Assembly: GCF_004010195.1 (NCBI RefSeq)
Contig: NC_057718.1
Span: 463,568 to 527,567 of the forward strand
DNA from: Chiloscyllium plagiosum
Lineage: Eukaryota
Length of the DNA: 64,000 nucleotides
Direction of reading: 5' to 3'
Of this stretch, positions 1-61,342 are shown in pieces (position 1 is the stretch's first letter; each line of letters begins with the position of its first letter). The notes beneath the pieces were generated by a model, which did no database searches, was not told where the DNA came from, and saw only the letters and a program-made list of their open reading frames with translations. Both the position numbers and the translations under genes were made by a program.

Positions 1-500
1 AGGATGAAGGACCCGATACCCAGCATGAGCAAAACCAATGTAGTGTACAAAATCCCATGCAAGGACTGCACAAAACACTACATAGGACAAACAGGAAGAC
101 AGCTAACGATCCGCATCCATGAACACCAACTAGCCACGAAACGATACGACCAGCTATCCTTAGTAGCCACACATGCAGATGACAAGCAACATGAATTCGA
201 CTGGGACAACATTACTATTATAGGACAAGCCAAACAGAGGCCAGGGAATTCCTAGAGGCACAGCACTCATCCACAGATTCTATCAATAAGCACATTGACC
301 TGGACCCAATATACCGGCCACTGCAACGGACAGCTAGAACTGACAACCGGAAGCGGCAGGTACAAATCACTATAAATACCGGAGGAAAGATCACAGAACG
401 CTTCACAGGAGGCTCCCAAGCACTGAGGATGTCACGTAGACAGGGGGCGAAATGTCTGCAGCTTAAATTCCCAGCTCGGCGAACAGAACCACCACAACTA
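1..500 (+). mobile_element. Penelope-like element 3' end (GIY-YIG endonuclease remnant plus pseudo-LTR)
   Basis: VVYKIPCKDCTKHYIGQTGRQLTIRIHEH GIY-YIG motif, frameshifted at its C-terminus, followed by a hammerhead motif. Confidence 0.9.
420..459 (+). ncRNA. Minimal type I hammerhead ribozyme motif (Penelope pseudo-LTR)
   Basis: gca-CTGAGGA-tgtc...ggc-GAAA-tg-TC-tgc; stem I gca/tgc. Confidence 0.7.
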
Positions 501-665
501 AGCATGTCCCAGTCAATATAAGGGAACCTGTTTTTATGTTCCTACTGTGCTATCAAATGACTCTTAAAATCACCAGTGTGTTTCCTTTGATGTACAATCC
601 CTCCATGAGCATTCATATTATCATGACTGACCACAACATCCTCTTTCTTTCCTAGTCCCACCTAC

Positions 666-762
666 CATTAGCATGAACATGGCTGGAATCCACAGCAACA
701 TCCCCCATGTCCCTCCGTAACTGCTCCAGCTGCTCCTCTTTCTTCTTCACCTCTGCCTCAGC
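666..762 (-). CDS. GPN1: GPN1 exon 12 (97 nt); remaining exons not seen in the window
   Basis: AEAEVKKKEEQLEQLRRDMGDVAVDSSHVHAN; ttccag/gtaggt. Confidence 0.9.
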
Positions 763-859
763 CTGGAACACAGCAGAACAACATGGATGAAGCAGGCTGA
801 GCAAGGGGGCCAGAGTGAAGGTACTGGGTCCTGTTCTCTCTGTCGAACAATGCACTCAC

Positions 860-899
860 CAGATCCTGTCGCAGTCTCTCATAATGTGGTCGATATTCA
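860..899 (-). CDS. GPN1: GPN1 exon 11 (40 nt)
   Basis: EYRPHYERLRQDL; ccccacag/gtgagt. Confidence 0.94.
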
Positions 900-2792: not shown

Positions 2793-3095
2793 ACAAAAAC
2801 AGAAATTGCTGGAAAAGCTCAGCAGGTCAGGAGAGAAATCAGAGTTAACCTTTCAGGTTGACTGACCCTTCCTCAGAACACAATAGATTACATCAAAAAG
2901 GTGCAATGCTGGAAAAGCCCATCCAGTCAGGCAGCATCCGAGGAGGAGGGTCAACATTTCAAGCATAAGCTCTTCATCAGGAATGTGAAGACTCTCCTGC
3001 TCCTCGGATGCAGCCTGACCAGCTGTGCTTTTCCAGCACCACACTTTTTGACTCTGATCTCCAGCATCTGCAGTCCTCACTTTCTCCTATACAAC
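2793..3095. mobile_element. Composite Penelope pseudo-LTR insertion (two related families, inverted arms)
   Basis: Two degenerate minus-strand hammerhead cores; flanked by agattgagga at 2783-2792 and 3096-3105. Confidence 0.7.
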
Positions 3096-4039
3096 AGATT
3101 GAGGATTGGTTAACTAATAGAAGTCAAAGAATTGGAAATGGGGTGGGGGGGGGGGGGGGGGGGCATTTTCAAAAGGCAGCCTGTAACTATTAGTCATGAA
3201 AGGACACTTTGCTTGGAGCAGCAGTGGGACCCGGGCAGCAGCAGGTCTGTTTCACTATAATCTGTAACTTTATGGTTTGACATATTCCTCACATTACCAT
3301 GATCAAGTCAGGGTCAGTCCTTTTCTTCAACAAGTGCAGAAGGTGGGGCATAGACTCTAAACATGCAAGGCCGACATAGTGAAGCTACAAAACAAACCAC
3401 TACACAGGCTAAACAGCAAAGGCAGGAAGTTACAGAAATAGGGAAATAATCCCAGAACAATGGATCAGATCAAAGACCTGTCACATCTAGTTATGACGGT
3501 TGCATTTCATGGAGGAGCATGCTCAAGGTGTTGAACTGCCTTTTCCTGCTCCTAGTCCTTACCTACCTACCTAACCCTGATTGATGGTCAATAATTCAGT
3601 GACCTACTGGAAGAGTAAACTCCATGATCATCCCATCCTTAATAATGGTGTAGGCCCTGCACAATACAGAAGGTAAAACTAAAGCATTTCCATCCAGCTT
3701 TAACCAGAAATATAAAGTGAGTGACCTATTTTGGCTTCCCAGTATCACAGACACCAGTTTCCAGCCAACGCGATATGCACTGCATGATATATAAAAAAAA
3801 GACAGTTGAAGGCACAGGGTACTGAAAAGCCTGTGGATCCCAAAAATATTCAGGTAATAATACAAACAATTTGTGCTTCAGAACTAGCCACATCCCTAGA
3901 AAAGCTGCTTCACTGTATCTTTAGGAACGGCATTTACCTGGCAATATGAAAAACTGCCCATTTATGTTCTGTACAAAAAGCTGAACAAATTCAATCTATC
4001 TAATTCGCATCCTATTAGTCAAAGTTTGAACATCAGTAA

Positions 4040-5020
4040 GTGATGGACGGTGTGGATGGTGGGCATTGCTGGCTGGCCAGCATTTATTACTCCTCTCTCG
4101 TTGTCCTTGAGAATTTGGGGGTGAGCTGCCTTCTTGAACCACTGCAGTCCACCTACTGTGGGGTTGACCCACAATGCCATTAGGGAGGGAACTCCAAGAG
4201 TTTGGCCCAGAGACAGTAAAGGCAAATTATTTCCAAGTCAGGATAGTGAGTGGCTTGGAGGGGAGCTTGCATGTGGTGGTGTCCCCATGTATCTGCTCTC
4301 CTGTCCTTCCAGATCAAAGCAGTTGTGGGTTTGGAAGGTGCTAAAGATGTTTGGTGAGTTTCTGCAGTGCGTCTTGTAGACAGTACACACTGTTGCCGTT
4401 ACTGTGCGTCAGTGAGGGAGAGAGTGGGTGTGTGTGGATTTGGTGCAGGCTGCTTCATCCTGGACGGTGCCAAGCTTCTTGAGTGTTGTTGGAGCTACCC
4501 CCATTCAGGTAAGTTTGGGAGTATCCCAACACACTCCTGACTTGCGCCTTGTAGCTGGTGGACAGGCTTTGGCGAGTCAGGAGGTGAGTTACTCCCTGCA
4601 ATATCCCTAGTGTCTGACCTGTTCTTGGAGCCACTGTGTTTATGTGGTGAGTCCAGTTGAGTTTCTGACCAAGGAGTTACTATTGTTTTGGATTCTCTTG
4701 GCTCTTATGCTGTTTAGCACAGACAGTCCTGTTTGGTGGCTTCGCCATGTTGACACCATATCTTCAGGTACACCTGGTGTTGCTCCTCCTGCACCCTCCA
4801 TTGCACCAGGGTCAATCTCCCGGCCTGATAGTAATGGTTGACTAGGGGATATTCTGAGTTATAAAGTTATAGATTAACTAGTGTACAATTCTGCTGCTTT
4901 TAATGGCCCATAGCACAAATGGATGCCCAGATTTGAGTTGCTAGATCTGTTTGTAATCTGTCCCATTTAGCACAGTGACAGTGCCACATAATACAACAGA
5001 TGGTATCCTCAATGTGAACA
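4040..5020 (-). mobile_element. Degraded LINE-derived repeat (CR1/L2 group); related pieces at about 36560-36915, 40925-41150 and 47520-47810
   Basis: Recurrent blocks ttccaagtcaggat...ggcttggaggggaacttg and ttgagtgttgttggagctg within the window. Confidence 0.6.
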
Positions 5021-5389
5021 GAGGAGTGACATTATGGAGGCCTGAACTCACGGGGAAACTTTGTGAAACTCTCCACCGGCTTGAATGATGCCAACCACCC
5101 TCTTAATTACCAATTTATATTTAGGGACATAGACTTTGGGTTTCCTTTTGTTGGCTGATGTTCTCATATTCTCTCTGCCCTTCAGCTCTCTGTTCTTTTC
5201 TGTATGCATCGCGGCTCATGACTATCATGAACCCAACAGTTATGATAAGTTAGTTCTAGAGAATGACGAGAAAACAGAGAGTCTGAACATAACTTCCAAT
5301 TGACATGAAGTGAGACAGAATAAAATTGGAGATAAGGAGGGTATAACGGAGAAGGATTCAGGGTGTGCTCGAATTTGCAGGCAATTTAC

Positions 5390-5536
5390 CCGGAGCTGAC
5401 TGTAGAACTCATCCAGGACAAGACTCATGGAACGGGTCAGATTACTGGCAAAAGTCGTCTCCTGGTTCAGTGCATCCTGAAAAGTTTCAAAATCTTTCAT
5501 CCACTCCACGGCAAAGGAATGATCAACAATATCAAT
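5390..5536 (-). CDS. GPN1: GPN1 exon 9 (147 nt)
   Basis: [49 protein letters not shown]; ttag/gtaaat. Confidence 0.97.
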
Positions 5537-5538
5537 CT

Positions 5539-6795
5539 AAAGTCACAGGAACAAGGTAATGATCAGTGTACAGTCAAAGCAACTGGGTAATGTCCGTGTA
5601 AAATCACAGCAACAAGGTAACGATCAGAGTATAGAAACAAGGTAATGATCAGCGTCCAGTCACAGGAACAGGATAATGATCACAGGACAGTCACAGGAAC
5701 AGGATAATGAGCAGTATCCAGTCACAGGAGCAGGGTAATGATCACAGGAACAGGGTAATGAGCAGCATCCAGTCACAGGAACACGGTAACGATCACAGGA
5801 CAGTCACAGGAATACGGTAATGATCACAGGACAGTCACAGGAACAGGATAACGAACAGCGTCCAGACACAGGAACAGGGTAATGATCACAGGAACAGGGT
5901 AATGAACAGCGTCCAGTCACAGGAACATGGTAACAATCACAGGACAGTCACAGGAACATGGTATCGATCATAGGACAGTCACAGGAATACGGTAATGATC
6001 ACAGGACAGTCGCAGGAACTGGGTAATGATCAGTGTCCAGTCACAGGAACAGGGGAATGATCACAGGACAGTCACAGGAACAGGGTAATGATCAGCGTCC
6101 AGTCACAGGAACAGGGTAATGATCACAGGACAGTCACAGGAACAGGGGAATGATCAGCGTCCAGACACAGGAATAGGATAATGATCACAGGACAGTCACA
6201 GGAACAGGATAATGAGCAGTATCCAGTCACAGGAGCAGGGTAATGATCACAGGAACAGGGTAATGAGCAGCGTTCAGTCACAGGAACACGGTAACGATCA
6301 CAGGACAGTCACAGGAACAGGATAATGATCACAGGACAGTCACAGGAACAGGTTAACGAACAGCGTCCAGACACAGGAACAGGATAATGGTCACAGGAAC
6401 AGGATAATGAGCAGTATTCAGTCACAGGAGCAGGGTAATGATCACAGGAACAGGGTAATGAGCAGTGTTCAGTCACAGGAACACGGTAACGATCACAGGA
6501 CAGTCACAGGAATACGGTAATGATCAGTGCACAGTCACAGGAACATGGTAATGATCACAGGACAGTCACAGGAACTGGGTAATGATCAGTGTCCAGTCAC
6601 AGGAACCGGGTAATGATCAGTGTCCAGTCACAGGAACCGGGGAATGAGCAGTGTCCAGTCACAGGAACAGGTTAATGATCAGTGCACAGTCACAGGAACA
6701 GGGTAATGATCAGTGCACAGTCACAGGAACAGGGTAATGATCAGTGTAAATGTCACAGGTGCAAGGTCATGATCAGTGTACAGTCACAGCAACTG
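5539..6795. repeat. Intronic minisatellite, about 31-bp unit with 20-bp variants
   Basis: agtcacaggaacagggtaatgatcagcgtcc repeated about 40 times, degenerate. Confidence 0.95.
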
Positions 6796-7977
6796 GATAT
6801 CTCCTGCATTAAAAAAGACCAGGAGGCTCCAGGCATAACAAACCGCTTGTTCAGATGTTAATTTTCCCACTCATCACATTTCCAACAACTGCATGCAGTG
6901 GCTACACAGCTCCCTCCCCTTACATCACTCCCGAATCCAATCTCCACATGACGATCACTGCTTAACCTGTCCTCACCCATACCCTGAACTTTTCTCCATA
7001 TCCTTTCAGCTCATTTTTTTCAAAAACCACTCATATCCTCAACCCCAATTAACATTTTGCATGTCCGTCAAGTATTTCTCTGCACTGTCCCATACGTTTC
7101 TACTTACCGGAAAGGTTAGATGCACAGTGAAACTCAACTTGTGTTATCCCAACAAATATTCCCAGGACAAGAACAGAACTGTTCAGGTATACCTGTAAAG
7201 CTCCCTCAACACTGTAACTATCCCCGCGCAGTACTGTTTGATAGGCAAAGAGTAAAGTTCTGTCTACTCTTTTAAAGTCAAAGTAAAACTACCTTGACAC
7301 TGGCCCCATTCCCAGGGACAGCACGTGGTTAGACAGATAAGAACCAGGAGCAGGAGTTCACAATTCAGCCCCTCGAGCCACAGATTCACAACCCTTTGGA
7401 AGTCATTCTTCCTCATCTCTGTTTTAAATCTGCCACCCTTTCTCCTCAAACTATGACCTCACATTCTAGGTTACCCCATGCATCCTCTCAATGTCTACTT
7501 TGTCAATCTCCTTCAGATATAGGTCTCAGTTAGATTTTGTTTCATTATTCTAAACTCCAGCAAGAATAGTCCTAAAATGCTGACTTTCTGCCCAAAGCAA
7601 ACCCCTCCTCTCTGGAATTAATCGAGTGAACTCCTCTGACTTGTCTCCAACGCAATTACATCCCTCCCCAAGAAAGGTGACCAGAGTTGTAAGCAATACT
7701 CCAGCCGGCTGGATAATTGAAGGGACATTTCCCCAGTTTTATTCTTTAAGCAATAAATAACAAACCCCCTGCTGCCTTCCTTATTACCAGCTGTATCTGC
7801 ATAATAGTTCTCTCTGATTAACATATGAGGACACCCAGATCCCTCTGCACCAAAGCACTCTGATGTTTCTCTACACTTAGATAATAAGCTGCCTTTCTAT
7901 TCTCCAATTCAAATGAATAACTTTGCATTTATCCACATTAAACTCAAGAATATAGAATAAAGCTCCCTCTATATTGT

Positions 7978-8090
7978 TTATGCCCGAAACGTCGATTCTC
8001 CTGTTCCCTGGATGCTGCCTGACCTGCTGCGCTGTTCCAGCAACACATTTTCAGCTCTGATCTCCAGCATCTGCAGACCTCACTTTCTCT
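7978..8090 (+). mobile_element. Short Penelope pseudo-LTR insertion
   Basis: gcccgaaacgtcg...ctgcagacctcactttc; 14-bp TSD tccctctatattgt (7964-7977, 8091-8104). Confidence 0.8.
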
Positions 8091-8408
8091 TCCCTCTATA
8101 TTGTCCCCACCAAACACTTCCAGCCTGGGTACAACATTCAGCTAGATACCCAATAAAGTTCCCCATACACTCTGACTAAATGTGGCCAAGATCCACCTTT
8201 GAAAGATCAGTACAAATACAAGTCAGTATTTCCTGCAACCAAGCCCAGCCATTGCACATCCTGAGTAACTGGACTGGGACTACCTTGGACCTAATTACTT
8301 TACAGCCCCTAGGTGATTTTTATTCAGTTGGACACATCTGAACATAGATCATTGGAGTGCAACGTCACTGTGTGATCCTTATATTGTCCCAACCTAAGTG
8401 ATTCTTAC

Positions 8409-8454
8409 CTTATTCATGATGACAATGAATGGCAGTCTGGTCTTGTACAGAATA
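8409..8454 (-). CDS. GPN1: GPN1 exon 8 (46 nt)
   Basis: ILYKTRLPFIVIMNK (start of G4 NKxD); tttcag/gtaaga. Confidence 0.96.
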
Positions 8455-9159
8455 CTGAAAGAGGAACGATTGACATTTTAATTTAGCACACAGGCCCTTG
8501 TAAAGCCTGAAAATGTACAACCAACAGACTTTTGTAAAAGATTTACAGAAACAAACAGAGATGAAATACAAAGGGACTGCACTACTAGCAGAGTTGTTTC
8601 AGAGTCTACTCCCCCCTCCATTATGGGAGGAAAATCAAATAAATTATTAGGAATAACAATAAGACTGCTGTCAAAGATTTGAATTAATTGCTGAGGTAGG
8701 AAGGAATCTCAAGTGGGAATCCAATTCTTAAATTGTACAAAGTTAAAATAGTAAAGGAAAATAATTTATATAGAGACCAGAGCATCAGATTACACCAGAG
8801 GAAGATGTCAGAAAGGTGAGGAAAGGATCAACATGACTGTGACAGAGGTACAAAATATTGTCATAGGGGGTGACTGAAATGTTGCTGATCTTTAATTAAT
8901 GACACTACTTCAAGCTTCAGACAACATGGACAATAAAGAGGTTGCAGCAAACTGAAATTAAGGAGCACATATGGCTCATATAGATGCATAAGAGATTAAG
9001 AAAAAAATAAAGAAAGAATAAGCGTGACAAGAGAGAAATATGACGAGGAGGAGTCAGGACTGTTTAAACCTATCAGTATGAATGAGTTGTGAAATGAGGC
9101 ATGGGACAAGAGGAAAGGAAACAAGATTTTGAAAATAAGGAGAGATAAACACTGAGTCA

Positions 9160-12100
9160 GAGGCACACAGAATAGAAACAGGCCCTTTGGTCCATCACAT
9201 CTGTGCTGACTAACAAACACCAAACAACAGTAATTCCATTTACCTGCACTTGGTCTGTAGCCTATCATGTCCTGCAATTTTAAGTCAGTGGTGCTGGAAG
9301 AGCACAGCAATTCAGGCAGCATCCGAGGACAGGCAAAATCGACGTTTCGGGCAAAAGCCCTTCATCAGGAAACTGAGGCTTTTGCCCGAAACGTCGATTT
9401 TGCCTGTCCTCAGATGCTGCCTGAATTGCTGTGCTCTTCCAGCACCACTGATCCAGAATCTGGTTTCCAGCATCTGCAGTCATTGTTTTTACCTCTGCAA
9501 TTTTAAGTGCTCATCCAGATGTTTCTGAAATGTTGGGACAGTACTAGCTGGGTTAGCTATGGGGAATACAGGGTTGCAGGAATTGCGTAGAGTGGAGTGT
9601 CTGGGTGAGGTACTCTTCAGGAGAGTTGGTGGGGACTCGATAGGCCAAATGGCCTGTTTTCACACTGTAGGGATTCTATGATTCTACCACCCTCTCATGC
9701 AGCACATTCGTTATTTCTATCACCGTCTGGGTGAATTTTCTCTCTCTTCATATCTCCTCAAAGCCAGTTGCTCCTCACCATAAACTTATGCCGTCTGAAA
9801 CATCTGCCATGAGGAAGAGACTCTCATGACTTAGTCTGTCTCATAACTTTGGATACCTCAATCAGAACCCCCTCAGCCTCCCGTCATAACTGAGACTTTT
9901 CATCCAAAGCAACATCCTGGTTAATCTCCTCTGCACCACCTCCAGTGCAATCGCATCTTTCCAACAATGCAGCGAGCGTAACTGTACTCAATATTCCATC
10001 TGTGCCCTAACCAAGGTTTTATCAAGTTGTAATAGGACTTCCCTGTTCCTATAGTCTATGCCCTGGTTAATGAAGGCAAATATCTCATATGCCATCTCCC
10101 TGTGCTGACATCTTCAGGGATCTAAGGACCTGTACACCAAGGTCCCTTTGCTCCTCAGTACTCTCTAGGAACCTACCATTCATTGTGGATATCCTTCCCT
10201 TATTACACCTCCCAAAATACAGGTTTAAACTGTATCATTGCTCTGCCCAAATTACCAGCTGATCAATATCAGACTGGAGCCTGAGACCATCCTCCTCACT
10301 ATCAACACCACCACCAATTTTCATATCATCTGCAAACTTACTAATTATACCTGTGACATCCATATCCAAGTTGTTATTGTACATAACAAACAGCAAGGGT
10401 CAAGGGTCCCAGCACTGATCCCTGTGGTACATCTTGATGGTCACAGACTTCCAATTACAATGACAACCCTCTACCATCACTCTTTACTTCTTATTTATAA
10501 GCTAGTTTTGGATCCAGTTAGCCGACATGCCTTGCATCCCATGGGCTCTTGTCGTTTGCACCAGCTTTCCATGTGAGACCTTGTCAAAAGCCAACATGAA
10601 GTCCATATAAACCACATCAACTGTGCTACCCTCATCAACATAGTTAGTCACCTCTTCAAAAAACTCAATTCAATTAATCAGACAGGATCCCCTTTGAACA
10701 AATCCATGCTGACTATCCCTGATCAATCTCTGCATTTCAAAATACTGATTTATCTTGTCCTTCAGAATTTTTTTCCAACAATATCCTTACCACTGATGCC
10801 AGATTAACTGCTCTGTAATTACCTGGTCTATCCTTGCTGCCCTTCTTCAGCAAAGCTACCCTCCAGTCAGCTGGCACTTCACCCACGGCCAACGAGGTAT
10901 TAAGTATCTCTGCCAGGTCAGCAGGAATCTCTTCTCTTGCCTTCCTGGGATATACTTCATCAGGCCCTGGGTATTTGTGCACCTGTATGCCTACTAACAT
11001 ATCTAATACCTCCTCCTTATTAACCGTAACATGTTCCAGAATCTCACCGTCCCAAATGACATTTCCACTGACAATACGTCTCTCTCCTCTGTGAATTCAG
11101 ATGAGAAGTTCAGTTAAGACCTCACCTATCTCCACTGGCTCCATGCACAGATTGCCCTTTTGGTTTCTAATCGGTTCCACCATTTTCCTGGTAATCCTCT
11201 TACTCTTAATCTACCTTTAAAAAGCCTTGAGGTTTTTCTTGATCTCATTTCTAAAATACATTTTGCCCTCTAAATTTATTTTTTAAACAACGCCCTGCCT
11301 GGTATGTTTGCTCATTTCCCTTTAGCAAACTCGCGATCTCCCTTGACATTCAGGGTTCCCTGCACTTCATGTCCTTGCCCTTCACTCTTACAGAAACACA
11401 CTGACTCATCTCTTGGGGGAACTACCTACATTGGCACAAAAAGGCTTCCTTGGATGCATTTAAAAAATTGCATCTGATTCTTTCACACTAAGGCAATCCT
11501 AATTAATGTTAGCAAAGTTGAAGTCCCCTCAAACTGGAACCCTATTTCTCTCACACCTTTCCGCTTACATATCTGCTACCTTACCTCCCTCTGATTATTG
11601 GGAGGCCTGTATTATAATCCCAGCAAGGTAACTGCCCCTTTGCTTATGTCTAAGCTTTACCTCGATGGCCTCATTTGATGACTCTTCTGCAACATCCGCC
11701 CTCATTACTGCAGTAGTGGTTTCCTTTATCAATACCTCACTCACTTACTTGCTCACTACTCCACGTGAAACTACTGTCCCCTGGAATGTTAAGCTGTCAG
11801 TCCTGTCCTTTCTTCAACCATAACTCAGCGATTGCAACAATATCATATTCCAACATGCTGATTAACACTAAGTTCATCTGCCTTGCTAATCAAGTTCCTT
11901 GCATTCAGATAGATAAGATTTAGTTTTCTACACTTATCAAATAGCTTACCCTGCCTATGATTTCTCTGCTTGCTGAACTGTACTGGCATTTCTTCACAAC
12001 CGAGTGAGTCTGAATTTATATTTCCTCTATGCTCCATTCCCCATCAAATCAGCTTAAAACTTCCCCATCAGCATGAGCAAATTCCCAGCAAGGAAACTGG

Positions 12101-12520: not shown

Positions 12521-13099
12521 GTGATTGCTGGCTGTTCACCCTCCCCCTTCTAGATGTTCTGCAGCTGCTACTGAACTGGCCAGAAGTGAGATAACAGAGA
12601 TTGAAATAAATTGAAAGGAAGTATTTAAGATAAAAAGATGGACAGTGTTGAGATCTGACAGAATACACACACGGATCCTATGGAAAATGGAAGAAAGACC
12701 CAGAAGTTGTACCTTGTTTTGTTGATAAATATGAGCTCTGTCACATGCAGATCAGAAAGGACAATTCAACTTGTGCAATTCTCACTTAATTACCACTCTG
12801 CCATGGTAGGATTTGAACTCAGGTTCCCAGAACATTACCTGGATCTGGATGAACAGACCAGTGATCACTTGGCCATCACCTGCCCTAATATACAATATCA
12901 AATCCTAACTGTAAGATTTTGTCCAATTTACAATTGTTACCAAATCCCATTAGAGCTTTCTTTGGTTCTCAATTATTCATTATCACTTCTATTTCACAAC
13001 GATATGAAAACATGGACACAGGTGCCTCTCCAGCGACACCCACATCACTGGAGAGCATGGGGACCAGCTCCTTCCCCGGTACACAGCTTGGGAACATAC

Positions 13100-13194
13100 C
13101 TGCATGCATACAGCATGTTAGACATGAAGGTGACTGGGTTCGTGCTGCGTGAGGTGTCCATCACATAGACAACAACTGTGGAGAAGGTGGAAGC
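13100..13194 (-). CDS. GPN1: GPN1 exon 7 (95 nt)
   Basis: [31 protein letters not shown](S); cacag/gtatgt. Confidence 0.97.
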
Positions 13195-13470
13195 CTGTGA
13201 AGAAAATCACTGTTAATATAACAGACAGAAACAATCAGGATTAGGTTCCAACATTAATACCCCGTGGCAGACAGGGAACCTGGAAGGCTGCTAGATTTCA
13301 AGCTCGCATTAAAAAGGTGGGAAAACGTGGGTACAGTTGCAGATATAGCAGAGCCTGGGAACATTAGGAGGAAGATGTATTGACAGATTTACAGGAAAAA
13401 AGCTGCGCTGAATTGCTGGGGCATTGGATGAGCTACATAAGTAAGTCTGTGAGATTGACAGGAGAGGCAT

Positions 13471-24646: not shown

Positions 24647-24719
24647 CTGGAGCTGCAGTTCAGGGAAACAAATCAGCTGCTTGATCAAGAACAGACAGGC
24701 GGAGAACGCACACGGATAT

Positions 24720-45499: not shown

Positions 45500-46820
45500 A
45501 GGCCAGCCTTAGTCAAGGACCCATAGGAGACTAATAGAGAAGGTTAAAAACTCATGGGACCCACGCTAACTTCACAAATCCTAAATTGGCCTAGTAGCAG
45601 GAGACAGAGGGTAAAAGTGGACAACTTATGTGACTGAAGGCTGGTGTGCAGCGGTGTATCACAGATGATCAGTGCTGGGCCCTTTATTGTTTGTGATATT
45701 CACAAATGATATAGATGGGAATGTTGGGGGAATGTTAAGTTTGTGGATAACACAAAGATTGACTGGGCAATCAACATTGAGGATAAAGGTCTTGGGTTAA
45801 AGATAATATAAACTTCCCAGAGGTCTGTATCCTATCACTAAGTCGCCCTTTATTGAAATGTGGAAATACCTTGACTCTGGCACAACCATGTTAGACTCAG
45901 CACCCGAGTATGAAAATCTCTGGCACTCATCCTTTTTTTCCTGTCAGCCAGGGCTCTCTAATTGGACCAGATTAACTGCCCCAGTTACAGAACTCATGTT
46001 CTGAGAGGTCCCAATGGGAAGCTCAGTCACAGATGGAATTTAACCCTGAGAAATGAGAGGGTCAGGCATTTCAGAAGAAGTAACAAAGGAGATTACAATT
46101 CATGTCAGGACACTAGGATGCTCAGAGGAAACAGGGTAATACTTATCCACACATCCCTGAGGGTGGTTCAACAGGTTAGCAGAGTAGTTAAGAAGGTTAC
46201 CTTTACTAGTCAAGACATAGACTATAAGAGCAGGGAGATGATGTTGGGGCAGGACAGGACATTGGTCAGGCCCCAGCTGGAGGACTGTGTGCAGTTCTGG
46301 TTCCCACACTACAGGAAGGATGGGATTGTACTGGAGGGGGTGTAGAGGAACTTCAGGATGGTCACTGGGATGGAACATTTCAGCGATGAAGAGAGGCTGG
46401 ATAACTCTGGTTTTCTTTAGATCAGAGGAGGTTGAGGGGGGACCTGATTATGAGGGGTATGGAATGTAGTGAATAGAAAGCAGCTGTTCCCCTGGGTTAA
46501 AGGTGAAAAGTGTAGCACTGGAAAAGCACAGCAGGTCAGGCAGCATCCAAGGAACAGCAGAGTCAGCGGATCAACATTCCTGATGAAGAGCTTATGCCTG
46601 AAATGTCGATTCTCCTGCTCCTCAGATGTTGCCTTACCTGCTGTGCTTTTCCAGCACCACACTCTCGATACTGATCTCTAGCATCTGCAGTCTGCACTTT
46701 CTCCCTTTAGTTAAAGGGTCAACGACCAGGGAGCATAATTTTAAAGTGAAAGGCAAGTGGTTTAGATGGGATTTGGGAAAGCATTTTTATCACCAGAGGG
46801 TGGTGAGGGTCTGGCATAGT
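45500..46820 (+). mobile_element. CR1 RT/3' fragments, interrupted
   Basis: LVRPQLEDCVQFWFPHYRKD. Confidence 0.8.
46504..46704. mobile_element. Inverted Penelope pseudo-LTR insertion within a CR1
   Basis: Inverted arms, CTGATGA...GAAA core at about 46580-46603, imperfect TSD ending gttaaagg. Confidence 0.75.
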
Positions 46821-47505: not shown

Positions 47506-47973
47506 AGTATTTTTTGCCTATCTCTAATTGCCCTTGAGAATGTGGTGAGCTGCCTTCATGAATCACTGCTGGCCATCTGCTGTAGGTTTACCCATAATAG
47601 CCATGAGGGACGGAATCCCAGGATTCTGAACCAGCCACAGTGAAGGAACGACAAAATATCTCCAAGTCAGGATGGGGAGTGGCTTGGAGGGGAACTTGCA
47701 GAGAGTGGTGTTTCCATGTATCTGCTGCCCTTTTCCTTCTAGATTGAAGTGGTCATGGATTTAGAAGTTGCTGTCTGAGGAACTTTGATGAATTTCTGCA
47801 GTGCCTCTTCCCTGTAACCCTTGGTGTTGCCTTACTAATTAAGTAAGTTCAGGCTGAACATGCGCTGTCCCCTACCGCTGTGCACTGAGACTTCCTTTTC
47901 AAATAATGTTCATTTTCAGTTCAGTTCAGTTTTTTTAATTGTTGATCTCTCACTGTACCCACTCTGTTTTTAG

Positions 47974-48257
47974 GGAATATCATTAAGAATGAGGTGCTGT
48001 ACCTGTCTGCGATTCACCCCATGTCTCTGGGCTGCCTGCTCCATGTTGAGCAACTACAGACGCTGCTGGACAACGTGATCCAGTTCAGCCACGAATGGCT
48101 GGACAAGAAGGTGAAAGGCAAAGGCTTAAAGTACCACATCTATCAGAGAGAGCAGTGCCCTCAGGGTCATGCTGTGGAGAGGGCAGACCTGGGAGCACCT
48201 CGTTGTCTTCAGCGGCCTACATGGTGGTGTCCTGTGTGCCAACCTGCAGTGCATTGA
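47974..48257 (+). CDS. NEIL2: NEIL2 last coding exon with CHCC zinc finger
   Basis: [19 protein letters not shown]...[11 protein letters not shown]...[13 protein letters not shown] then TGA; the four exons sum to 969 nt = 322 aa plus stop. Confidence 0.96.
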
Positions 48258-48389: not shown

Positions 48390-49794
48390 AATATACCTTC
48401 TGCAATCAGCCTAATCTTTTGTGGGGAGAAAGTGGAGAAAGTGAGGTCTGCAGATGCTGGACATCAGAGCTGAAAATGTGTTGCTAGAACAGCGCAGCAG
48501 GTCTTGTGGGGACATCTTTTAGCAAGGAGAGAGTGCATTTTGTGTCCAATTCTCTGTACAGTTGATGAGTTAAATATTGTGTTGTATCTGTTAGTATTTG
48601 AAGCAATTATTCAACTGGATTATTCACAATTTGACATTAGGAGAAATAGGTAGGGACTCTGAAACAGCAATTTTTTTTATACTTACACTTCTCGTTATCC
48701 CCTTGATGACCAGGCAGCAGAGGTTTAAGGCCACAGCAGAGGGAATGGGAGGAAAATGTTCACCCAGATTCCAGGTGGGAATCTGGAGCTCTCTGCAGAA
48801 CGCCGGCCCCCAACATTTACAAAGTATTTAGATGTGCACTTGTGGTGCCAAAGCGCACACGTCTATGGACCACGTGCTAGAAAATGGGTTTACAATAGTT
48901 AGGGAGGTGTTTTAGACTGTCACGGCTGTGATGGGCCTTTTTCTGTGCTGTCACTCAAATGAAAGGCAAACTCAATTTGAATGTGCGATTTCAACTCCAC
49001 AAGGGCTGTGTGGTGACGCATACATCTGTGTCAGGCAGGTAGAGAAGGATGACTATGTCTCTCCCCCTCGTTGGTTCCTTCACCATCTGCCGCAGACCCA
49101 GTCCAGCAGTTATGTCCTTTAGCGCCCGACCTGCTCGATCAGGTGGTAGATGTTGAAAGCCCCTGCCCAGAATCTATTCTGTGCCCTTGCCACCTAAGTG
49201 CTTCCTCCAAGTGTTATTCTGCATGTAGTTGTACTGATTGATCCGTTAAGGAGACGGTACATGGGTAAGGAAACTTCCTGCTGATTACCATGTTTGACAT
49301 GATACTGTGAGACTTCATGGATTCCAGAGTCAATGTTGTGGACTCTCAGAAAATCTCCCTCTTGACTGTATCTCACTGTGCCACCACCTTTGCTCTGTCT
49401 GTCCTGCAGCTGGTGACACTGCTGTTGTCTGGATCATTGTAGAGTATGACTCTGCTTGCATTGCCTTTCAGGGAGGAATGTGTGAGGGTAAGAATGTGGA
49501 CATAGAGTATTGAAATGAGAACAAAAAATGACAGCTCCTTATGTAGATAAAAATAGCCCTGGGATTGCAGGAACATTGGGGCAAGTCCACTGGAAGGTTT
49601 GCCATTTTTCAACTTGCAAGTGAAAGTAAATGTCATGCACTAACAGAATGTGTCATTGTTAATTCAAGACATCCTTATTATTAATTCAGGTTGTTTCCAG
49701 AGATGGTCAAATTTAAGTCTTTTGGGTGTTGCAGTTAAAATAATGCACCCTGGTTAGATCCAAAGAAGAGATATATCTGCACAATATTACAAAA

Positions 49795-54800: not shown

Positions 54801-55996
54801 TGATCAGCCTGAAAACTTCGGAGCTAAATGTTCACAACTACCCAGGAGGAGGGGAGCTGAAGACATCAAAACCACATCACCCTACATCCTGAAATGTAGA
54901 CAATGTTTCTGTTTGCAGCCAGAAAAACTCAATATCCACCTCCTGCTAAAGGTAAAGAGGGAAACTGAAGCTATGTAAAACTGTGAGAGAACTAAGCAGC
55001 AGGCTGTTGGGGATAGTCCCAGTAACTAAACCAATGGATCTGGCAGAATCTGTGTCGATCCTTATACAATTCAACACAGCAAGTGAATGCAAAGTTCATC
55101 CAATGATATCTGTGGATGAAATATCAGCAAAATTGAGAAAAGTTTAACCTTCATGAAGCTCAATTAAAATAGAACTGCTTGGAACGGTCCCTTGGTGAAA
55201 AGTTTCAGTTCCTCCTGACCTTTGTTAACTGATGATTGAAGGTTTTGTTTCAACAGAATGCTCTTTGGCATTACATCAGTGGCAGAGGTCTACATGAGCA
55301 TAACGTTAAGCATCTGAAGAGGACTTGATGGAGATTTATCTCACATGGATAATGTCCTGATCCATGGATCTGCTCAGACAGAACAAGACACTAGAGTGTG
55401 AGCTATGCTGTGATGTCTACAGGACATGGGACATACACTTCACTGATGCATAACATTCAATTTTTAGCTGTGTGTGTTGGGGAATTTTAGAAGTGGGTTA
55501 GAGTTTTAATTAGTAAAGTTATGTATTGAATAATTATTTAACTGTAATTACAATCTTTTTAGCTTTCTTGATTATTGTTCATTATAGACAATGGAAAGCT
55601 GTCCCTTGAATCTCAAATATAGGATGCAGACTTGGAGTACTGTGAGCAGATCCCACATTTGGAAAGACATATAGTATGCAAATTAGGCCTGTTTGCTCTT
55701 GAATTTAGGAGGTTAAGGAATGATATGATTGAAATCTTCAAGCAAGAGACTTTTTTCAGTTGGACTTTAATGAAGAAACAGATCCCAGAGTAATACAACA
55801 TGAATAAACCCCCTGGGCAGCAGAAACAGAAGCAGGAGGTGATGTACGATTAACATCACTGCAAGTACAACATTTACACTGAGGCAAGACTGCTCTCAAG
55901 GAGAAAGTGAGGACTGCAGATGCTGGAGATCAGAGCTGGAAATGTGTTGCTGGAAAAGCGCAGCAGGTCAGGCAGCATCCAGGGAACAGGAGAATC

Positions 55997-56362
55997 CAGC
56001 TGCCACTGGAAGAGTCCACAATGGTTTAAAATTTTCTGCACACACTTCCAGGCTCAGCTGACAATATCAGACTCTGGACACAGAAAGATCCCACCCTGGC
56101 GAAACTGAAACAGCTGGTGGTGATGGGGGAAACCAAAGGGTCATCACAACCATAACGGAAACCTTTCTGGACCAGGAGAGACTGGATCAGAGTAGAGAAC
56201 GGTGTATTATTATGAGAGTGATTGTCCCAAGAAAAGGTCATCAGCTGATATTGGACAAACTCCACATGAAAATGAAAATGTTGGCAAGAAGTTATGTCTG
56301 GTGGCCAGGATTTGATGCCAACATAGCTGTGTTGATGAGACAGTGCCCAAAGTGCCAACAAA
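55997..56362 (+). mobile_element. Gypsy integrase N-terminal (zinc-binding) fragment
   Basis: WTQKDPTLAKLKQLV...VIVPRKGHQLILDKLH...MKMLARSYVWWPGFDANI...CPKCQ. Confidence 0.8.
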
Positions 56363-56542
56363 ACTTTCAAATTTAGAAAATTTAAAATCAAAAGTGTGAT
56401 CCTTTCTTCTCTAATGTCCAGATCCAAATTACTGCAGAAGCAGAGAAGTGTAGTCCTTGCTTTGGTTGAGAGCAGTCTTGAAAATGTGTTGCTGGAAAAG
56501 CGCAGCAGGTCAGGCAGCATTTCGGGCATAAGCCCTTCTTCA

Positions 56543-58935
56543 GGAGGGTCAGTGCTGTGGGAGGGTCAGTGCTGAGGGACGGTCAGTGTTGAGGGAGTGG
56601 GCGCTGTGGGAGGGTCAGTGCTGAGGGACGGTCAGTGTTGAGGGAGTGGGCGCTGTGGGAGGGTCAGTGCTGAGGGACGGTCAGTGTTGAGGGAGTGGGC
56701 GCTGTGGGAGGGTCAGTGCTGAGGGACGGTCAGTGTTGAGGGAGTGGGCGCTGTGGGAGGGTCAGTGCTGAGGGACGGTCAGTGTTGAGGGAGTGGGCGC
56801 TGTGGGAGGGTCAGTGCTGAGGGACGGTCAGTGTTGAGGGAGTGGGCGCTGTGGGAGGGTCAGTGCTGAGGGACGGTCAGTGTTGAGGGAGTGGGCGCTG
56901 TGGGAGGGTCAGTGCTGAGGGACGGTCAGTGTTGAGGGAGTGGGCGCTGTGGGAGGGTCAGTGCTGAGGGACGGTCAGTGTTGAGGGAGTGGGCGCTGTG
57001 GGAGGGTCAGTGCTGAGGGAGCAGGTGCTGAGGGAGGGTCAGTGTTGAGGGAGGGCCAGCGCTGAGGGAGAGTCAGCGCTGAGGGAGGGTCAGTGCTGAG
57101 GGAGGGTCAGTGCTGAGGGAGGGCCAGCGCTGAGGGAGAGTCAGCGCTGAGGGAGGGTCAGTGCTGAGGGAGGGTCAGTGCTGAGGGAGGGCCAGCGCTG
57201 AGGGAGAGTCAGCGCTGAGGGAGGGTCAGTGCTGAGGGAGGGTCAGTGCTGAGGGAGGGCCAGCGCTGAGGGAGAGTCAGCGCTGAGGGAGGGTCAGTGC
57301 TGAGGGAGGGTCAGTGCTGAGGGAGGGCCAGCGCTGAGGGAGAGTCAGCGCTGAGGGAGGGTCAGTGCTGAGGGAGGGTCAGTGCTGAGGGAGGGCCAGC
57401 GCTGAGGGAGAGTCAGCGCTGAGGGAGGGTCAGTGCTGAGGGAGGGTCAGTGCTGAGGGAGGGCCAGCGCTGAGGGAGAGTCAGCGCTGAGGGAGGGTCA
57501 GTGCTGAGGGAGGGTCAGTGCTGAGGGAGGGCCAGCGCTGAGGGAGAGTCAGCGCTGAGGGAGGGTCAGTGCTGAGGGAGGGTCAGTGCTGAGGGAGGGC
57601 CAGCGCTGAGGGAGAGTCAGCGCTGAGGGAGGGTCAGTGCTGAGGGAGGGTCAGTGCTGAGGGAGGGCCAGCGCTGAGGGAGAGTCAGCGCTGAGGGAGG
57701 GTCAGTGCTGAGGGAGGGTCAGTGCTGAGGGAGGGCCAGCGCTGAGGGAGAGTCAGCGCTGAGGGAGGGTCAGTGCTGAGGGAGGGTCAGTGCTGAGGGA
57801 GGGCCAGCGCTGAGGGAGAGTCAGCGCTGAGGGAGGGTCAGTGCTGAGGGAGGGTCAGTGCTGAGGGAGGGCCAGCGCTGAGGGAGAGTCAGCGCTGAGG
57901 GAGGGTCAGTGCTGAGGGAGGGTCAGTGCTGAGGGAGGGCCAGCGCTGAGGGAGAGTCAGCGCTGAGGGAGGGTCAGTGCTGAGGGAGGGTCAGTGCTGA
58001 GGGAGGGCCAGCGCTGAGGGAGAGTCAGCGCTGAGGGAGGGTCAGTGCTGAGGGAGGGTCAGTGCTGAGGGAGGGCCAGCGCTGAGGGAGAGTCAGCGCT
58101 GAGGGAGGGTCAGTGCTGAGGGAGGGTCAGTGCTGAGGGAGGGCCAGCGCTGAGGGAGAGTCAGCGCTGAGGGAGGGTCAGTGCTGAGGGAGGGTCAGTG
58201 CTGAGGGAGGGCCAGCGCTGAGGGAGAGTCAGCGCTGAGGGAGGGTCAGTGCTGAGGGAGGGTCAGTGCTGAGGGAGGGCCAGCGCTGAGGGAGAGTCAG
58301 CGCTGAGGGAGGGTCAGTGCTGAGGGAGGGTCAGTGCTGAGGGAGGGCCAGCGCTGAGGGAGAGTCAGCGCTGAGGGAGGGTCAGTGCTGAGGGAGGGTC
58401 AGTGCTGAGGGAGGGCCAGCGCTGAGGGAGAGTCAGCGCTGAGGGAGGGTCAGTGCTGAGGGAGGGTCAGTGCTGAGGGAGGGCCAGCGCTGAGGGAGAG
58501 TCAGCGCTGAGGGAGGGTCAGTGCTGAGGGAGGGTCAGTGCTGAGGGAGGGCCAGCGCTGAGGGAGAGTCAGCGCTGAGGGAGGGTCAGTGCTGAGGGAG
58601 GGTCAGTGCTGAGGGAGGGCCAGCGCTGAGGGAGAGTCAGCGCTGAGGGAGGGTCAGTGCTGAGGGAGGGTCAGTGCTGAGGGAGGGCCAGCGCTGAGGG
58701 AGAGTCAGCGCTGAGGGAGGGTCAGTGCTGAGGGAGGGTCAGTGCTGAGGGAGGGCCAGCGCTGAGGGAGAGTCAGCGCTGAGGGAGGGTCAGTGCTGAG
58801 GGAGGGTCAGTGCTGAGGGAGGGCCAGCGCTGAGGGAGAGTCAGCGCTGAGGGAGGGTCAGTGCTGAGGGAGGGTCAGTGCTGAGGGAGGGCCAGCGCTG
58901 AGGGAGAGTCAGCGCTGAGGGAGGGTCAGTGCTGA
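56543..58935. repeat. G-rich satellite; 17-bp monomer in 49-bp then 68-bp higher-order repeats
   Basis: Monomer gagggagggtcagtgct; period 49 up to about 57020; period 68 thereafter (lines 57061 and 58081 identical, 1020 = 15 x 68). Confidence 0.97.
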
Positions 58936-59427
58936 GAATCTAAAAAGTGAGATAACGGAGTTTTACATAAATTCATGCAGTTTTTGAGCTCAGAGTTCTA
59001 CATGAATGTATGTGGTTTTTGAGCAAAGTACAATGTAATTCTGAAAGTACCAAAAAAATTCACCACACAAAATATATGTGTCCATGTGGGTCTTTGTCTG
59101 TGTGTGTATCTGTCTGGGGTGGGGTGTGTGTGTGTGTGTGTGTAGGGTGTCTTAAGTCTGAGAGGGGGTGCATGTGTCTATAAGGGTGTGTGTGGGTGTC
59201 TGTGTGCGCGTCTGTGTATATGTGTGTCCGTGTGTATGCGTGTATAGGAGTGCGTGTGTGTGTGTGTGTAGGAGTATCTGTGTGTGTGTATAGTGCAATG
59301 GTGGTCACCTGTAATGTGACATGAACCCAAGGTCCCGGTTGAGGCCCTCCCTATGGGTACCGAACTTAGCTATCAGCCTCTGCTCGGCCACTTTTCGCTG
59401 CTGCCTGGTGTTGTGTGATTTTTAACA
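58936..59427 (-). mobile_element. Penelope (Neptune-like) 3' fragment with CA-rich microsatellite UTR
   Basis: Minus strand QRKVAEQRLIAKFGTHREGLNRDLGFMSHYR* resembles the GIY-YIG C-terminus; ends in the same gtgttgtgtgatttttaac as the 59730 element. Confidence 0.75.
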
Positions 59428-59729
59428 ATTGGGTTATGTTTAATTTAGTGATGGAAAGAGATAGGTATCTACGGCAGGGCAAGAGTTATTGCTGGGGGAA
59501 AGGCAATTATGATGTGTTTGGGTATGATTAATGATCCATAGGATGGGGAAGGAAACTGCAGGGGATGGGCACAATTGAAATATGGAGCTTACTCAAGGAA
59601 CAGCTACTGTGTGTCCTTGGTAAGTATCTACTGGTCAGGCAGGGAGGAAGTTGTCGAGTGAGGGAGCTGTGATTTACTAAGGAAGTTGGATCTCTGATCA
59701 AGAGGAAGAAGAAGACTTATATTCGGATG

Positions 59730-59912
59730 ATGTGGAGGTGTCGGTGTTGGACTGGGGTGTACAAAGTTAAAAATCACACAACACCAGGTTATAGTCCAAC
59801 AGGTTTAATTGGAAGCACCAGCACAACCACCTGATGAAGGAGCGTTGCTCCGAAAGCTAGTGCTTCCAATTAAACCTGTTGGACTATAACCTGGTGTTGT
59901 GTGATTTTTAAC
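59730..59912. mobile_element. Hairpin-shaped Penelope pseudo-LTR insertion (family 2) in a CR1
   Basis: 54-bp inverted repeat (59765-59818 / 59860-59913); TSD tat(a/g)ttcggatg. Confidence 0.85.
59828..59862 (+). ncRNA. Minimal hammerhead ribozyme motif, second family
   Basis: cac-CTGATGA-a-ggagc-gtt-gctcc-GAAA-gc-TA-gtg; palindromic AGCT at stem III. Confidence 0.8.
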
Positions 59913-61342
59913 TATGTTCGGATGGGATGTGAAGGCTCAGTTAGGGCAATTGAGATTTACAAGTTAGCCAGGAAAGACCTAAAGAGAGAGCTAAGAAGAG
60001 CCAGGAGGGGAGATGAGAAGTTGTTGGCAGATAGAATCAAGGAAAACCCTAAGGCTTTCTATCGGTATATCAGGAATAAAAGAATGACCAGAGAAAGATT
60101 AGGGCCAATCAAGGACAGCAGTGGGAAGTTGTGCATGGACTTCGAGGCAATGGGGAAGCGTTAAATAAATACTTTTTGTCAGTGTTCACACTGGAATAAG
60201 ACAATGTTGTCGAGGAGAATACTGAGATACAGGCTATAGACTAGATGGGATTGAGGTTCACAAGGAGGGGGTGTTAGCAATTCTGGGAAGTGTAAACATA
60301 GGTAAGTCCCTTGGTCCAGATGGGATTTATCCTCGGATTCTCTGGGAAGCCATGGAGGAGATTGCCAAGCCTTTGGCGTTGATTTTTATATCATCATTGT
60401 CTACAGGAATGGTGCCAGAAGACTGGAGGATAGCAAATGTGGTTCCCCTGTTCAAGAAGGGGAGTAGAGACAATCCTGGTAATTATAGACCAGTGAGAGC
60501 CTTACTTCAGTTGTTGGTAAAGTGTTGGAAAAGGTGATAAGAGATAGGATTTATAATCATCTAGAGAGGAATAATTAAGGACAGTCAACATTGTTTTGTG
60601 AAAGGTAGGTCGTGCCTCACAAACCTTATTGGGTTCTTTGAGAAGGTGACCAAACAGGTGGATGAGGGTAAAGTGGTTGATGTGGTGTATATGGATTTCA
60701 GTAAGGCGTTTGATAAGGTTCCCCATGGTAGGCTATTGCACAAAATAAGGAGAAAAGGATTTGGGTTTGATTTAATGGTTTGGATATAATTTGGTTTGCT
60801 GAAAGAAGACAGAGGTGGTGGTTGATGGGAAATATTCATCCTGGAGTTCAGGTACTAGTGGGGTACTGCAAGGATCTGTTTTGCGTCCACTGTTTGTCAT
60901 TTTTATGAATGAGGGCTTGGAAGGATGGGTTAGTAAATTTGCATTTTATACTAAGGTCTGTGGAGTTGTGGATAGTGATGAAGGATGTTGTAGGTTACAG
61001 AGGGACATAGATAAGCTGCAGAGCTGGGTTGAGAGGTAGCAAATGGCGTTTAATGTGGAAAAGTGTGAGGTGATTCAGTTTGGAAGAAGCAACAGGAATG
61101 CAGAGTCCTGGGCTAATGGTAAGATTCTTGGGAGTGTAGATGAGCAGAGAGATCTCGGTGTCCAGGTACACAGATCCCTGAAAGTTGCCACCCAGTTTGA
61201 TAGAGTTGTTAAGAAGGCATATGGTATGTGAGCTTTTATTGGTAGAGGGATTGAGTCCGGAACCATGAGGTCATGCTGCAGCTGTACAAAACTCTGGTGT
61301 AGCCACATTTGGAGTATTGTGCACAGTTCTGGTTATAGGAAG

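Follow-up and report, generated by a model that had tools for sequence, protein, structure and literature searches.

Hammerhead-bearing insertions in the window

The window analyzed here, a 64,000-nt stretch of the Chiloscyllium plagiosum genome (contig NC_057718.1, positions 463,568 to 527,567), contains retroelement stubs of ~90-130 bases with a hammerhead ribozyme motif at their start. Their kind is known from earlier descriptions of Penelope-like elements (PLEs). Family A, which we defined by BLAST, profile search, and strict local alignment to a computed consensus, comprises 23 arms at 17 loci. Family B is represented by a palindromic insertion and a 26-nt fragment, and a candidate family C by one site. 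This inventory fits the original prediction of about 15 inserts of 70-300 bp.

The motif was searched for in two ways. The loose pattern CTGANGA-N(8-30)-GAAA has 15 matches on both strands of the window, compared with 5.9 +/- 2.5 in 100 dinucleotide shuffles (maximum 13; none of the 100 reaches 15). A strict minimal-hammerhead descriptor, modelled on a published one, consists of CTGANGA, zero or one bulged nucleotide, a helix II of 4-8 bp, a loop of 3-8 nt, GAAA, two free nucleotides, U, and H. It identifies nine sites, 423, 45032, and 59831 on the plus strand and 2847, 2953, 9341, 23436, 32482, and 42596 on the minus strand, whereas the mean of 200 shuffles is 0.03 (maximum 1). Both shuffle controls rule out a chance origin of the motifs. 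Site 46580 falls outside the strict descriptor because of a single A.C mismatch in its 4-bp helix II, and site 35703 because its core is degenerate. All 11 sites listed originally do hold the loose pattern on the expected strand, the one given as 35702 starting one base later. Overlooked at that time were the degenerate or truncated cores at 17021, 22277, and 32528 (plus strand) and 56520 (minus strand), as well as the fact that seven inserts are palindromes.

Positions within the unit are counted from the C of CTGATGA (position 0), and the predicted cleavage lies between +27 and +28. Six of the 17 family-A loci are head-to-head inverted pairs of arms. The youngest of them (9282-9489), with arms 99% complementary, consists of a complete arm (9282-9371, minus strand) with a canonical core at 9341-9368 and an inverted arm (9377-9489, plus strand) that starts at +9 and carries a tail; it is flanked by a duplication of 14-15 nt. 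In the palindrome at 2890-3090, the complete arm (2896-2984, minus strand; core 2953-2980) faces a tailed plus-strand arm (2990-3085) that starts at +28, and the flanking duplication is 10 nt with one mismatch. The palindrome at 23342-23536 combines a tailed minus-strand arm (23342-23463) spanning 0 to +122, with its core at 23436-23463, and a tailless plus-strand arm (23473-23536) that starts at +20; its duplication is 10-11 nt. At 32412-32615, both arms reach -4 around a filler of ~10 nt, neither has a tail, and the duplication is 16 nt; the minus-strand core (32482-32509) is intact and the plus-strand core (32528-32555) is inactivated by a change of G12 to A. The palindrome at 46506-46700 contains a tailed plus-strand arm (46573-46700) that begins at -7, with a core at 46580-46607 carrying one helix II mismatch, and a minus-strand arm (46506-46564) that starts at +28; the duplication is 8 nt.

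The remaining head-to-head insertion (16908-17111) is composite. A tailed minus-strand arm (16908-16975) begins at +53 and is followed by a 45-nt filler and a plus-strand arm (17021-17099, possibly to 17111) starting at +2, with a 14-nt duplication around the whole. The filler (16976-17020) repeats ~24 nt of the outer tail end of the insert itself together with 5 nt of flank, which suggests template switching or a second priming during integration.

Three single arms are full-length. The plus-strand arm at 22272-22400 extends from -5 to +123, includes the tail, and has a core inactivated by a change of G12 to A. The other two lack a tail: the minus-strand arm at 42531-42627 has a canonical core (42596-42623), the best helix I, and a duplication of 10-12 nt, and the plus-strand arm at 45028-45115 has its core at 45032-45059. 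Truncated single arms are found at 7978-8088 (plus strand; cut at +12 in the helix II loop, tailed, with a 14-15-nt duplication flush with both ends), at 42915-42984 (plus strand; 5'-truncated, subfamily A2, no tail, duplication 14-15 nt), at 48436-48503 (minus strand; cut at +55, tailed, duplication 9-11 nt), and at 55902-55996 (minus strand; tailed, starting exactly at +28, the first nucleotide past the predicted cleavage). The minus-strand arm at 56468-56546 retains a core at 56520-56543 and has an internal deletion right after GAAA, and a short diverged plus-strand fragment at 33201-33236 covers +44 to +79. Two further arms, at 2807-2877 (minus strand; core-like segment 2847-2876, helix II GGGU/ACCU, helix III not palindromic) and at 35703-35773 (plus strand; degenerate core), are, judged by their sequence, old diverged relatives of family A.

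Two of these loci have conspicuous neighbors. A 2.4-kb G-rich minisatellite (56543-58936; 68-nt period of 17-nt subunits, 35.5 copies, 93% matches) starts exactly at the 5' end of the arm at 56468-56546; PLEs are reported to favor microsatellite targets in the relevant passages of Craig et al. (2021; PMC8557442). At 2877-2890, the palindrome 2890-3090 is inserted a few nucleotides from the 5' end of the older arm 2807-2877, and PLE-type elements may thus land beside their own kind.

The family-B palindrome (59733-59920) is inserted in a CR1/L2-like long interspersed element (LINE). It consists of a one-sided 28-nt tail (59733-59760), an inverted minus-strand arm (59761-59822), and a plus-strand arm with a canonical core (59831-59859) that extends to ~59917. 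The arm sequence (59761-59917) is unrelated to that of family A. The core with its bulged A is the same, the 5-bp helix II has another sequence, AGCU is found versus ACGU in family A, and the distance from the core to the end of the unit is equal in both families. Alignment with a paralogous copy of the host LINE (28180-28420), which serves as the empty site, reveals a duplication of ~20 nt and 28 extra nucleotides on one side only, that is, the one-sided tail. Elsewhere in the window, family B is seen as the 26-nt fragment.

The plus-strand site at 423-456, with a bulge, a 5-bp helix II containing one mismatch, and an 8-nt loop, passes the strict descriptor. It has no second copy in the window. 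Because 0.03 chance matches are expected, this single copy is probably a relic of a third family. Of the at least three families postulated originally, the third depends on one single-copy site. In the families with unrelated flanks (two, or three with candidate C), the core occupies the same end of the unit.

Anatomy, ends, and decay of the unit

From 5' to 3', the unit consists of 4-6 nt, a 28-nt minimal type I hammerhead, ~55-70 nt ending in a small hairpin and an AC-rich stretch, and an optional tail of ~30 nt. The hammerhead itself comprises CUGAUGA, a bulged A, a helix II of 4-5 bp, GAAA, and a two-nucleotide palindromic stand-in for helix III. The conserved core (CUGANGA, GAAA, U16.1, H17) and the G10.1-C11.1 pair fit the minimal hammerhead ribozyme (min-HHR) of PLEs. 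Eight of the nine strict sites use the bulged nucleotide between A9 and G10.1, although the descriptor allowed zero or one. A palindromic 15.2/16.2 replaces helix III (ACGU or AGCU) in three of the nine strict copies and in the genome-wide consensus; the remaining family-A strict copies have UG or CA at this place, i.e., products of CpG decay. With the bulged nucleotide, the G10.1-C11.1 pair, and the palindromic 15.2/16.2 present in the master sequence, the earlier assignment to the PLE-type minimal hammerhead with a palindromic stem III is upheld.

Helix II occurs in several variants, all of them paired (GGGC/GCCC, GAGC/GCUC, and GGAGC/GCUCC). Among 15 aligned copies, 90% of the cells are paired and two of the four pairs have changed on both sides: GC is found in 10, AU in three, and GU in one copy at pair 22-34, and CG in 11 and UA in two at pair 24-32. 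The expected covariation across copies, and the expected pairing of a stem II that differs between families, were thus both observed. Inside family A, the covariation consists of subfamily-level changes and hence of few independent events; three subfamilies can be distinguished. These changes speak for selection on master RNAs rather than on inserted copies.

The 5' ends of the arms are strongly non-uniform. On the complete side, the starts are -7, -5, -4 (five arms), -3, and 0. On the truncated side, they are +2, +9, +12, +20, ~+22, +28 (three arms), +44, +46 (two arms), +52, +53, and +55, where ~+22 refers to the arm at 42915, corrected via its duplication, and one of the two +46 starts reflects an internal deletion. 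Hence nine of the 23 arms start between -7 and 0 (p = 0.0013 under a uniform distribution of starts from -7 to +55), eight of these falling within -7 to -3, 14 of 23 are 5'-truncated inside the unit, and no arm shares sequence with the others upstream of -7. The random placement of insert ends relative to the ribozyme that would have pointed to ordinary 5' truncation is not seen. The 3' ends form two classes. Class 1 (+80 to +97) ends right after the conserved small hairpin, seen in minimum-free-energy folds, and the AC-rich stretch, and class 2 (+113 to +123) includes the extra ~30-nt tail, which is present in nine of 23 arms.

Target-site duplications of 8-16 nt were found for 10 of the 15 family-A entries examined, all six palindromes among them, and four entries gave no convincing result. 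In single arms, the duplications abut the -4 edge. Since one duplication flanks each of the six palindromes, each palindrome represents a single insertion event. Five of the six carry the tail on exactly one arm. The inner junctions vary by locus, with filler of 1-45 nt, which indicates that the pairs mostly arose independently. In the two best-preserved palindromes (9345 and 32486), the two arms are each other's closest relatives; these are two of the five palindromes considered for arm kinship, the other three being older.

Taken together, these features support a discrete, ribozyme-sized unit rather than random 5' truncation. The ribozyme-sized mobile class proposed earlier is confirmed insofar as the unit is discrete and has a sharp edge at -4/-5; its retrozyme-like side is not, as the window contains no hammerhead tandem array (26 rows of Tandem Repeats Finder output, none with the motif). 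The edge could be set by transcription that initiates shortly before the ribozyme, by a strong stop of the reverse transcriptase, or by cDNA synthesis on a terminally redundant PLE mRNA from whichever of its two identical entry sites lies nearer the 5' end.

Public sequencing runs extend these observations beyond the window. Contigs were aligned to the arm 22272-22400 at 80% likeness. In run X1 (DNA, same organism label), 69,708 contigs matched out of 19,387,400 records; in X9 (DNA, related organism), 72,438 of 25,386,572; and in X17 (guessed to be RNA), 7,519 of 1,837,852. The raw single-cell RNA reads of X22 gave no match among 8,328,510 and count as no test. Summed word depth, which is not equivalent to copy number, is ~22 million in two central bins versus ~13 in the unique flanks. 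Toward the ribozyme side, it falls to 1.07 million and then to 84,000, exactly where the reference copy is diverged; because this divergence covers +20 to +39, the contigs carry no information on the true starts of inverted arms. These data from two species suggest 10^5-10^6 copies, with a floor of 7 x 10^4 and a rough ceiling of ~10^6, and the depth-based abundance matches the density in the window (23 arms in ~63 kb) in order of magnitude. No match to a degenerate 32-nt arm pattern was found in a metagenome scan.

The contigs also bear on the structure of the unit. The loose-end consensus just upstream of 22306 contains the complete canonical core (733 contigs in X1, 793 in X9, 146 in X17), and thus the master sequence is intact. 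All 11 of the opposite-strand joints among those listed have one side at 22272-22276 (-5 to -1), so that the edge at -4/-5 and the head-to-head arrangement are both confirmed in two species. Head-to-tail joints are few among the joints listed; the one from 22362 to 22272 occurs in at least three contigs of X1 and at least two of X9. The insertion 22272-22400 itself is also present in the related organism B, with flanks ~96% identical, and therefore predates the split of the two species.

Decay of the inserted copies is pronounced. Consensus CpGs read TG or CA in 35 of 63 cases, versus 9.2% change at other positions. The ribozyme contains three consensus CpGs, namely those of G12, of 15.2/16.2, and of the cleavage site, and all departures of family-A copies from ACGU at helix III are CpG decay products. 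Folding with ViennaRNA (minimum free energy; a hammerhead with a 1-bp helix III lies outside its scoring) gave -171, -176, and -110 kcal/mol for palindromic transcripts of 208, 224, and 193 nt, respectively, and -21 to -27 kcal/mol for single arms. The monomer is unable to form helix III. Because of CpG decay, a weak helix I, the lack of helix III in the monomer, and the predicted burial of the core in a near-perfect palindromic hairpin, most inserted copies appear to be decaying relics, not working ribozymes.

A hint of ribozyme activity may nevertheless be preserved in the truncated arms, three of 14 of which start exactly at +28 in family A (p about 0.002 for a prespecified position). The inverted arm of family B starts between +25 and +29. 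Two of the three +28 starts in family A are palindrome centers, where filler blurs the boundary by a few nucleotides.

Host genes and neighboring repeats

Matches to exons of an ATP_bind_1 (GPN-type) gene were found on the minus strand at 31111-31311, 24532-24672, 17698-17898, 13048-13206, and 5243-5536, in profile order. These exons bracket the cores 23436 and 9341, which are therefore both intronic and in sense orientation. Cores 32482, 2953, and 2847 are also sense to this gene if it extends that far. On the plus strand, one H2TH (Nei-type) exon was identified at 47946-48254, with cores 45032 and 46580 upstream on the same strand. The statement that several cores are sense to host pre-mRNAs thus stands for at least two of them, both in the minus-strand GPN-type gene.

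In all five family-A palindromes of the two gene regions, the complete ribozyme arm lies on the sense strand of the host gene: 2890-3090, 9282-9489, 23342-23536, and 32412-32615 for the minus-strand gene and 46506-46700 for the plus-strand gene (five of five, p ~0.03 for one direction, small n, uncorrected). Single arms have no such sense bias. The interval between the divergent GPN-type and Nei-type genes (33900-36100) contains GC-rich tandem repeats of 33-51 nt, and the GC skew changes sign there; it is probably the promoter region common to both genes. Another tandem array (5541-6793; 31/62/93-nt period, up to 21 copies, 73-79% matches) adjoins the GPN-type exon at 5243-5536.

Three decayed CR1/L2-like LINEs with Exo_endo_phos and RVT_1 matches are located at 26100-29470 (minus strand), 38400-41800 (plus strand), and 59874-63180 (plus strand), the last being interrupted close to its 5' end by the family-B insertion. 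Weak matches to GDSL esterases at 37787-38392, ahead of the second copy, possibly correspond to an esterase-type ORF1. An integrase zinc-binding fragment (Integrase_H2C2, E = 1.2e-6) at 56062-56373 on the plus strand is probably a remnant of a long terminal repeat (LTR) retrotransposon.

Origin of the insertions and their known counterparts

The anatomy, the end classes, the single duplication per insertion, and the abundance were established directly. With good confidence, we explain them by non-autonomous mini-elements that depend on PLEs and enter the genome through target-primed reverse transcription that uses one DNA strand or both. In the proposed mechanism, a PLE reverse transcriptase/GIY-YIG endonuclease would be supplied in trans, by analogy with PAc, the Poseidon element of Anolis (PMC11167929). 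Synthesis of cDNA would begin internally, either at the AC-rich hairpin or farther along by the length of the tail, be primed from one or both cut DNA strands, and run to an RNA 5' end that is fixed shortly before the ribozyme. With one strand as primer, the product would be a single arm; with both, it would be two head-to-head arms, that is, a palindrome with a usually one-sided tail; a head-to-tail pair would be a rare outcome. The ribozyme would be active only in the master RNA, and inserted copies would not be maintained. We infer the enzyme, the internal initiation, and this restriction of ribozyme action to the master RNA.

Several observations weigh against dependence on PLEs or against a functional ribozyme. 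No PLE reverse transcriptase or GIY-YIG open reading frame (ORF) was found among the scanned ORFs of the window, which covered those of at least 38 aa on the minus strand of 1-36.5 kb and on the plus strand of 32.8-61.8 kb, those of at least 131 aa on the opposite strand in either half, and the largest ones in the remainder; the reverse transcriptases that were found all belong to CR1/L2-like LINEs. Unlike in PAc, translation from the core AUG would run into a stop after 17 codons. Helix I is weak, with 54.5% of cells paired and the third pair mostly U.U; the unit supplies only 4-6 nt 5' of the core for this helix, and the sole copy with all five helix I pairs (42596) draws them partly from flanking DNA. 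Rfam hammerhead families gave no match, at the gathering score or at E up to 10, to the window or to its 81- and 91-nt stretches, a silence expected for cores without helix III. The duplication search was run without a shuffled control, and depth summed over contigs does not equal a number of copies.

One alternative dispenses with a separate short element: the arms would be nothing but 3' ends of full-length autonomous PLEs, cut short at random on the 5' side, and the hammerhead would be a feature that happens to lie close to those 3' ends. PLE insertions are known to be heavily 5'-truncated, according to the passages on insertion structure in PMC8557442, Cervera and de la Pena (2014; PMC4209133) read dispersed single motifs as such truncated ends in the part of their account concerned with them, and 14 of the 23 arms here are truncated inside the unit. 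However, random truncation does not account for 23 arms of which none extends beyond -7 and nine start between -7 and 0 (p = 0.0013), nor for duplications that abut the -4 edge in single arms, nor for the same edge in the inverted joints and in the longest aligned pieces from two species. We consider this origin unlikely.

Still less credible is a retroposon similar to short interspersed elements (SINEs), moved by a CR1/L2-type LINE, with a coincidental or convergent motif and palindromes formed by twin priming. It is true that three CR1/L2-like LINE copies are present in the window and that twin priming by LINEs can give inversions. Yet comparison of the arms with these LINE copies found no similarity, and the arms end 3' in neither a microsatellite nor poly-A. 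ARAGORN detected no tRNA-like sequence in the window, and hence no tRNA-like RNA polymerase III head; the arms contain runs of four T. Both the optional one-sided tail of ~30 nt and the minimal hammerhead with a bulged nucleotide are PLE hallmarks, and two or three unrelated families have the same core-to-end geometry. The least probable explanation, which we regard as very remote, involves miniature inverted-repeat transposable elements (MITEs) whose arms happen to hold the motif. Seven inserts are indeed near-perfect palindromes, and the sole weak Rfam matches on the inserts are microRNA-type hairpins, which we take as spurious and which first pointed to the palindromic inserts. MITEs fail to explain why the duplications vary in length from 8 to ~20 nt, why single arms carry duplications of their own, and why the outer ends are asymmetric, with a one-sided tail, and the inner junctions differ among copies.

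Non-autonomous, PLE-dependent mini-elements thus remain the favored explanation. A more far-reaching version, which we advance tentatively and hold to be doubtful, is that the Penelope machinery of this lineage yields chiefly such stubs, which would then not be decayed long elements. In one route, a terminally redundant PLE mRNA would offer two identical internal entry sites for the reverse transcriptase, and the stubs would be cDNA started at the one closer to the 5' end. In the other, they would be cDNA of a ~130-nt RNA that sustains itself and has its 5' end 4-5 nt ahead of the ribozyme. On this version, the hammerhead would also cut some templates in vivo, which would account for arms that start right after the cleavage site. 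Were this version true, with ~10^5-10^6 copies, the genome would hold the largest known reservoir of hammerhead motifs in a vertebrate and a genome-wide supply of perfect intronic RNA hairpins of 60-100 bp.

The min-HHRs of PLEs are known. A ribozyme-plus-reverse-transcriptase-entry module of ~100 nt, at perhaps a million copies, provides a natural data set on their role. Its sharp edges (a fixed 5' end, two 3' classes, and head-to-head joints) could test the PAc model of internal initiation and double-strand priming, a count of the copies whose first nucleotide lies at the cleavage site could reveal whether the ribozyme cuts in vivo, and the intronic copies could show how it is that so many perfect hairpins in sense orientation are tolerated. 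For annotation, it is important that such palindromes are easily confused with MITEs or microRNA precursors. Overall, the original prediction proves largely right, the corrections being that the units often occur as palindromic pairs, that they form no tandem arrays, and that most copies appear to be decaying relics.

Among known systems, the insertion structure can be compared with the hallmarks of PLE insertions given in the corresponding passages of Craig et al. (2021; PMC8557442): the inserts are strongly truncated at the 5' end, form partial tandems, lie next to an inverted 5'-truncated copy, and have a tail of 30-40 bp that is often confined to one end. The insertions described here share the 5' truncation, the adjacent inverted copy, the optional one-end tail, and the variable duplications, whereas partial head-to-tail tandems were not found in the window. 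With the non-LTR retrozymes of animals (Cervera and de la Pena, 2020; PMC7229834; Li, Clavereau and Pollet, 2026), as far as the cited descriptions of that class go, they share the nature of short non-autonomous type I hammerhead repeats from PLE termini and the occurrence of dispersed solo monomers. Retrozymes are defined by tandem arrays, however, and the main multi-copy form here is inverted, not direct. Our search of the literature on hammerhead ribozymes or Penelope/SINE elements in sharks found no paper on such elements.

The hammerhead itself closely resembles the motifs that Cervera and de la Pena (2014; PMC4209133) describe in the flanking repeats (pseudo-LTRs) of metazoan PLEs. The traits reported in their sections on the motif are an unpaired nucleotide 5' of helix II, the G10.1-C11.1 pair, a palindromic 15.2-16.2, and a short helix I. 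They further report covariation-rich families, thousands of dispersed single motifs, some opposite-strand pairs 100-700 bp apart, and weak, dimer-dependent cleavage in vitro. Common to both sets are the CUGANGA and GAAA boxes, the bulged nucleotide, the G10.1-C11.1 pair, the palindromic 15.2/16.2 in place of a real helix III, covarying helix II families, dispersed single motifs in large numbers, and opposite-strand pairs. By contrast with those sections, the motif here opens a discrete unit of ~90-130 nt at its extreme 5' edge, and the two arms of an opposite-strand pair adjoin each other directly, separated by 1-45 nt. The apparent copy number exceeds the 4,000-9,000 given there for coelacanth and Xenopus by one to two orders of magnitude, but the methods differ. 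The min-HHRs in that account sit in PLEs, whereas the stubs are seen here without a linked full PLE. Their position within introns in sense orientation also differs from the depletion from introns reported for Xenopus in the available text of a preprint (Li, Clavereau and Pollet, 2026; 10.64898/2026.07.22.740005).

A mechanistic counterpart is offered by the in vitro behavior of PAc, as presented in the relevant results of PMC11167929. Both DNA strands are cleaved and extended, and reverse transcription starts internally at two sites that bracket the tail, in an AC-rich stem-loop 111-118 nt into the ORF. The AUG of the ORF lies within the hammerhead core and the cut site 26 nt after the start codon; the ribozyme cleaves only with the protein, and insertion does not need cleavage. 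Unlike PAc as described there, the stubs contain no ORF and nothing upstream of the ribozyme, where PAc has a pseudo-LTR. The geometry of families A and B is nevertheless close to that of PAc: counted from the AUG, the cut falls at 25 nt and the ends fall at ~77-94 and ~120 nt.

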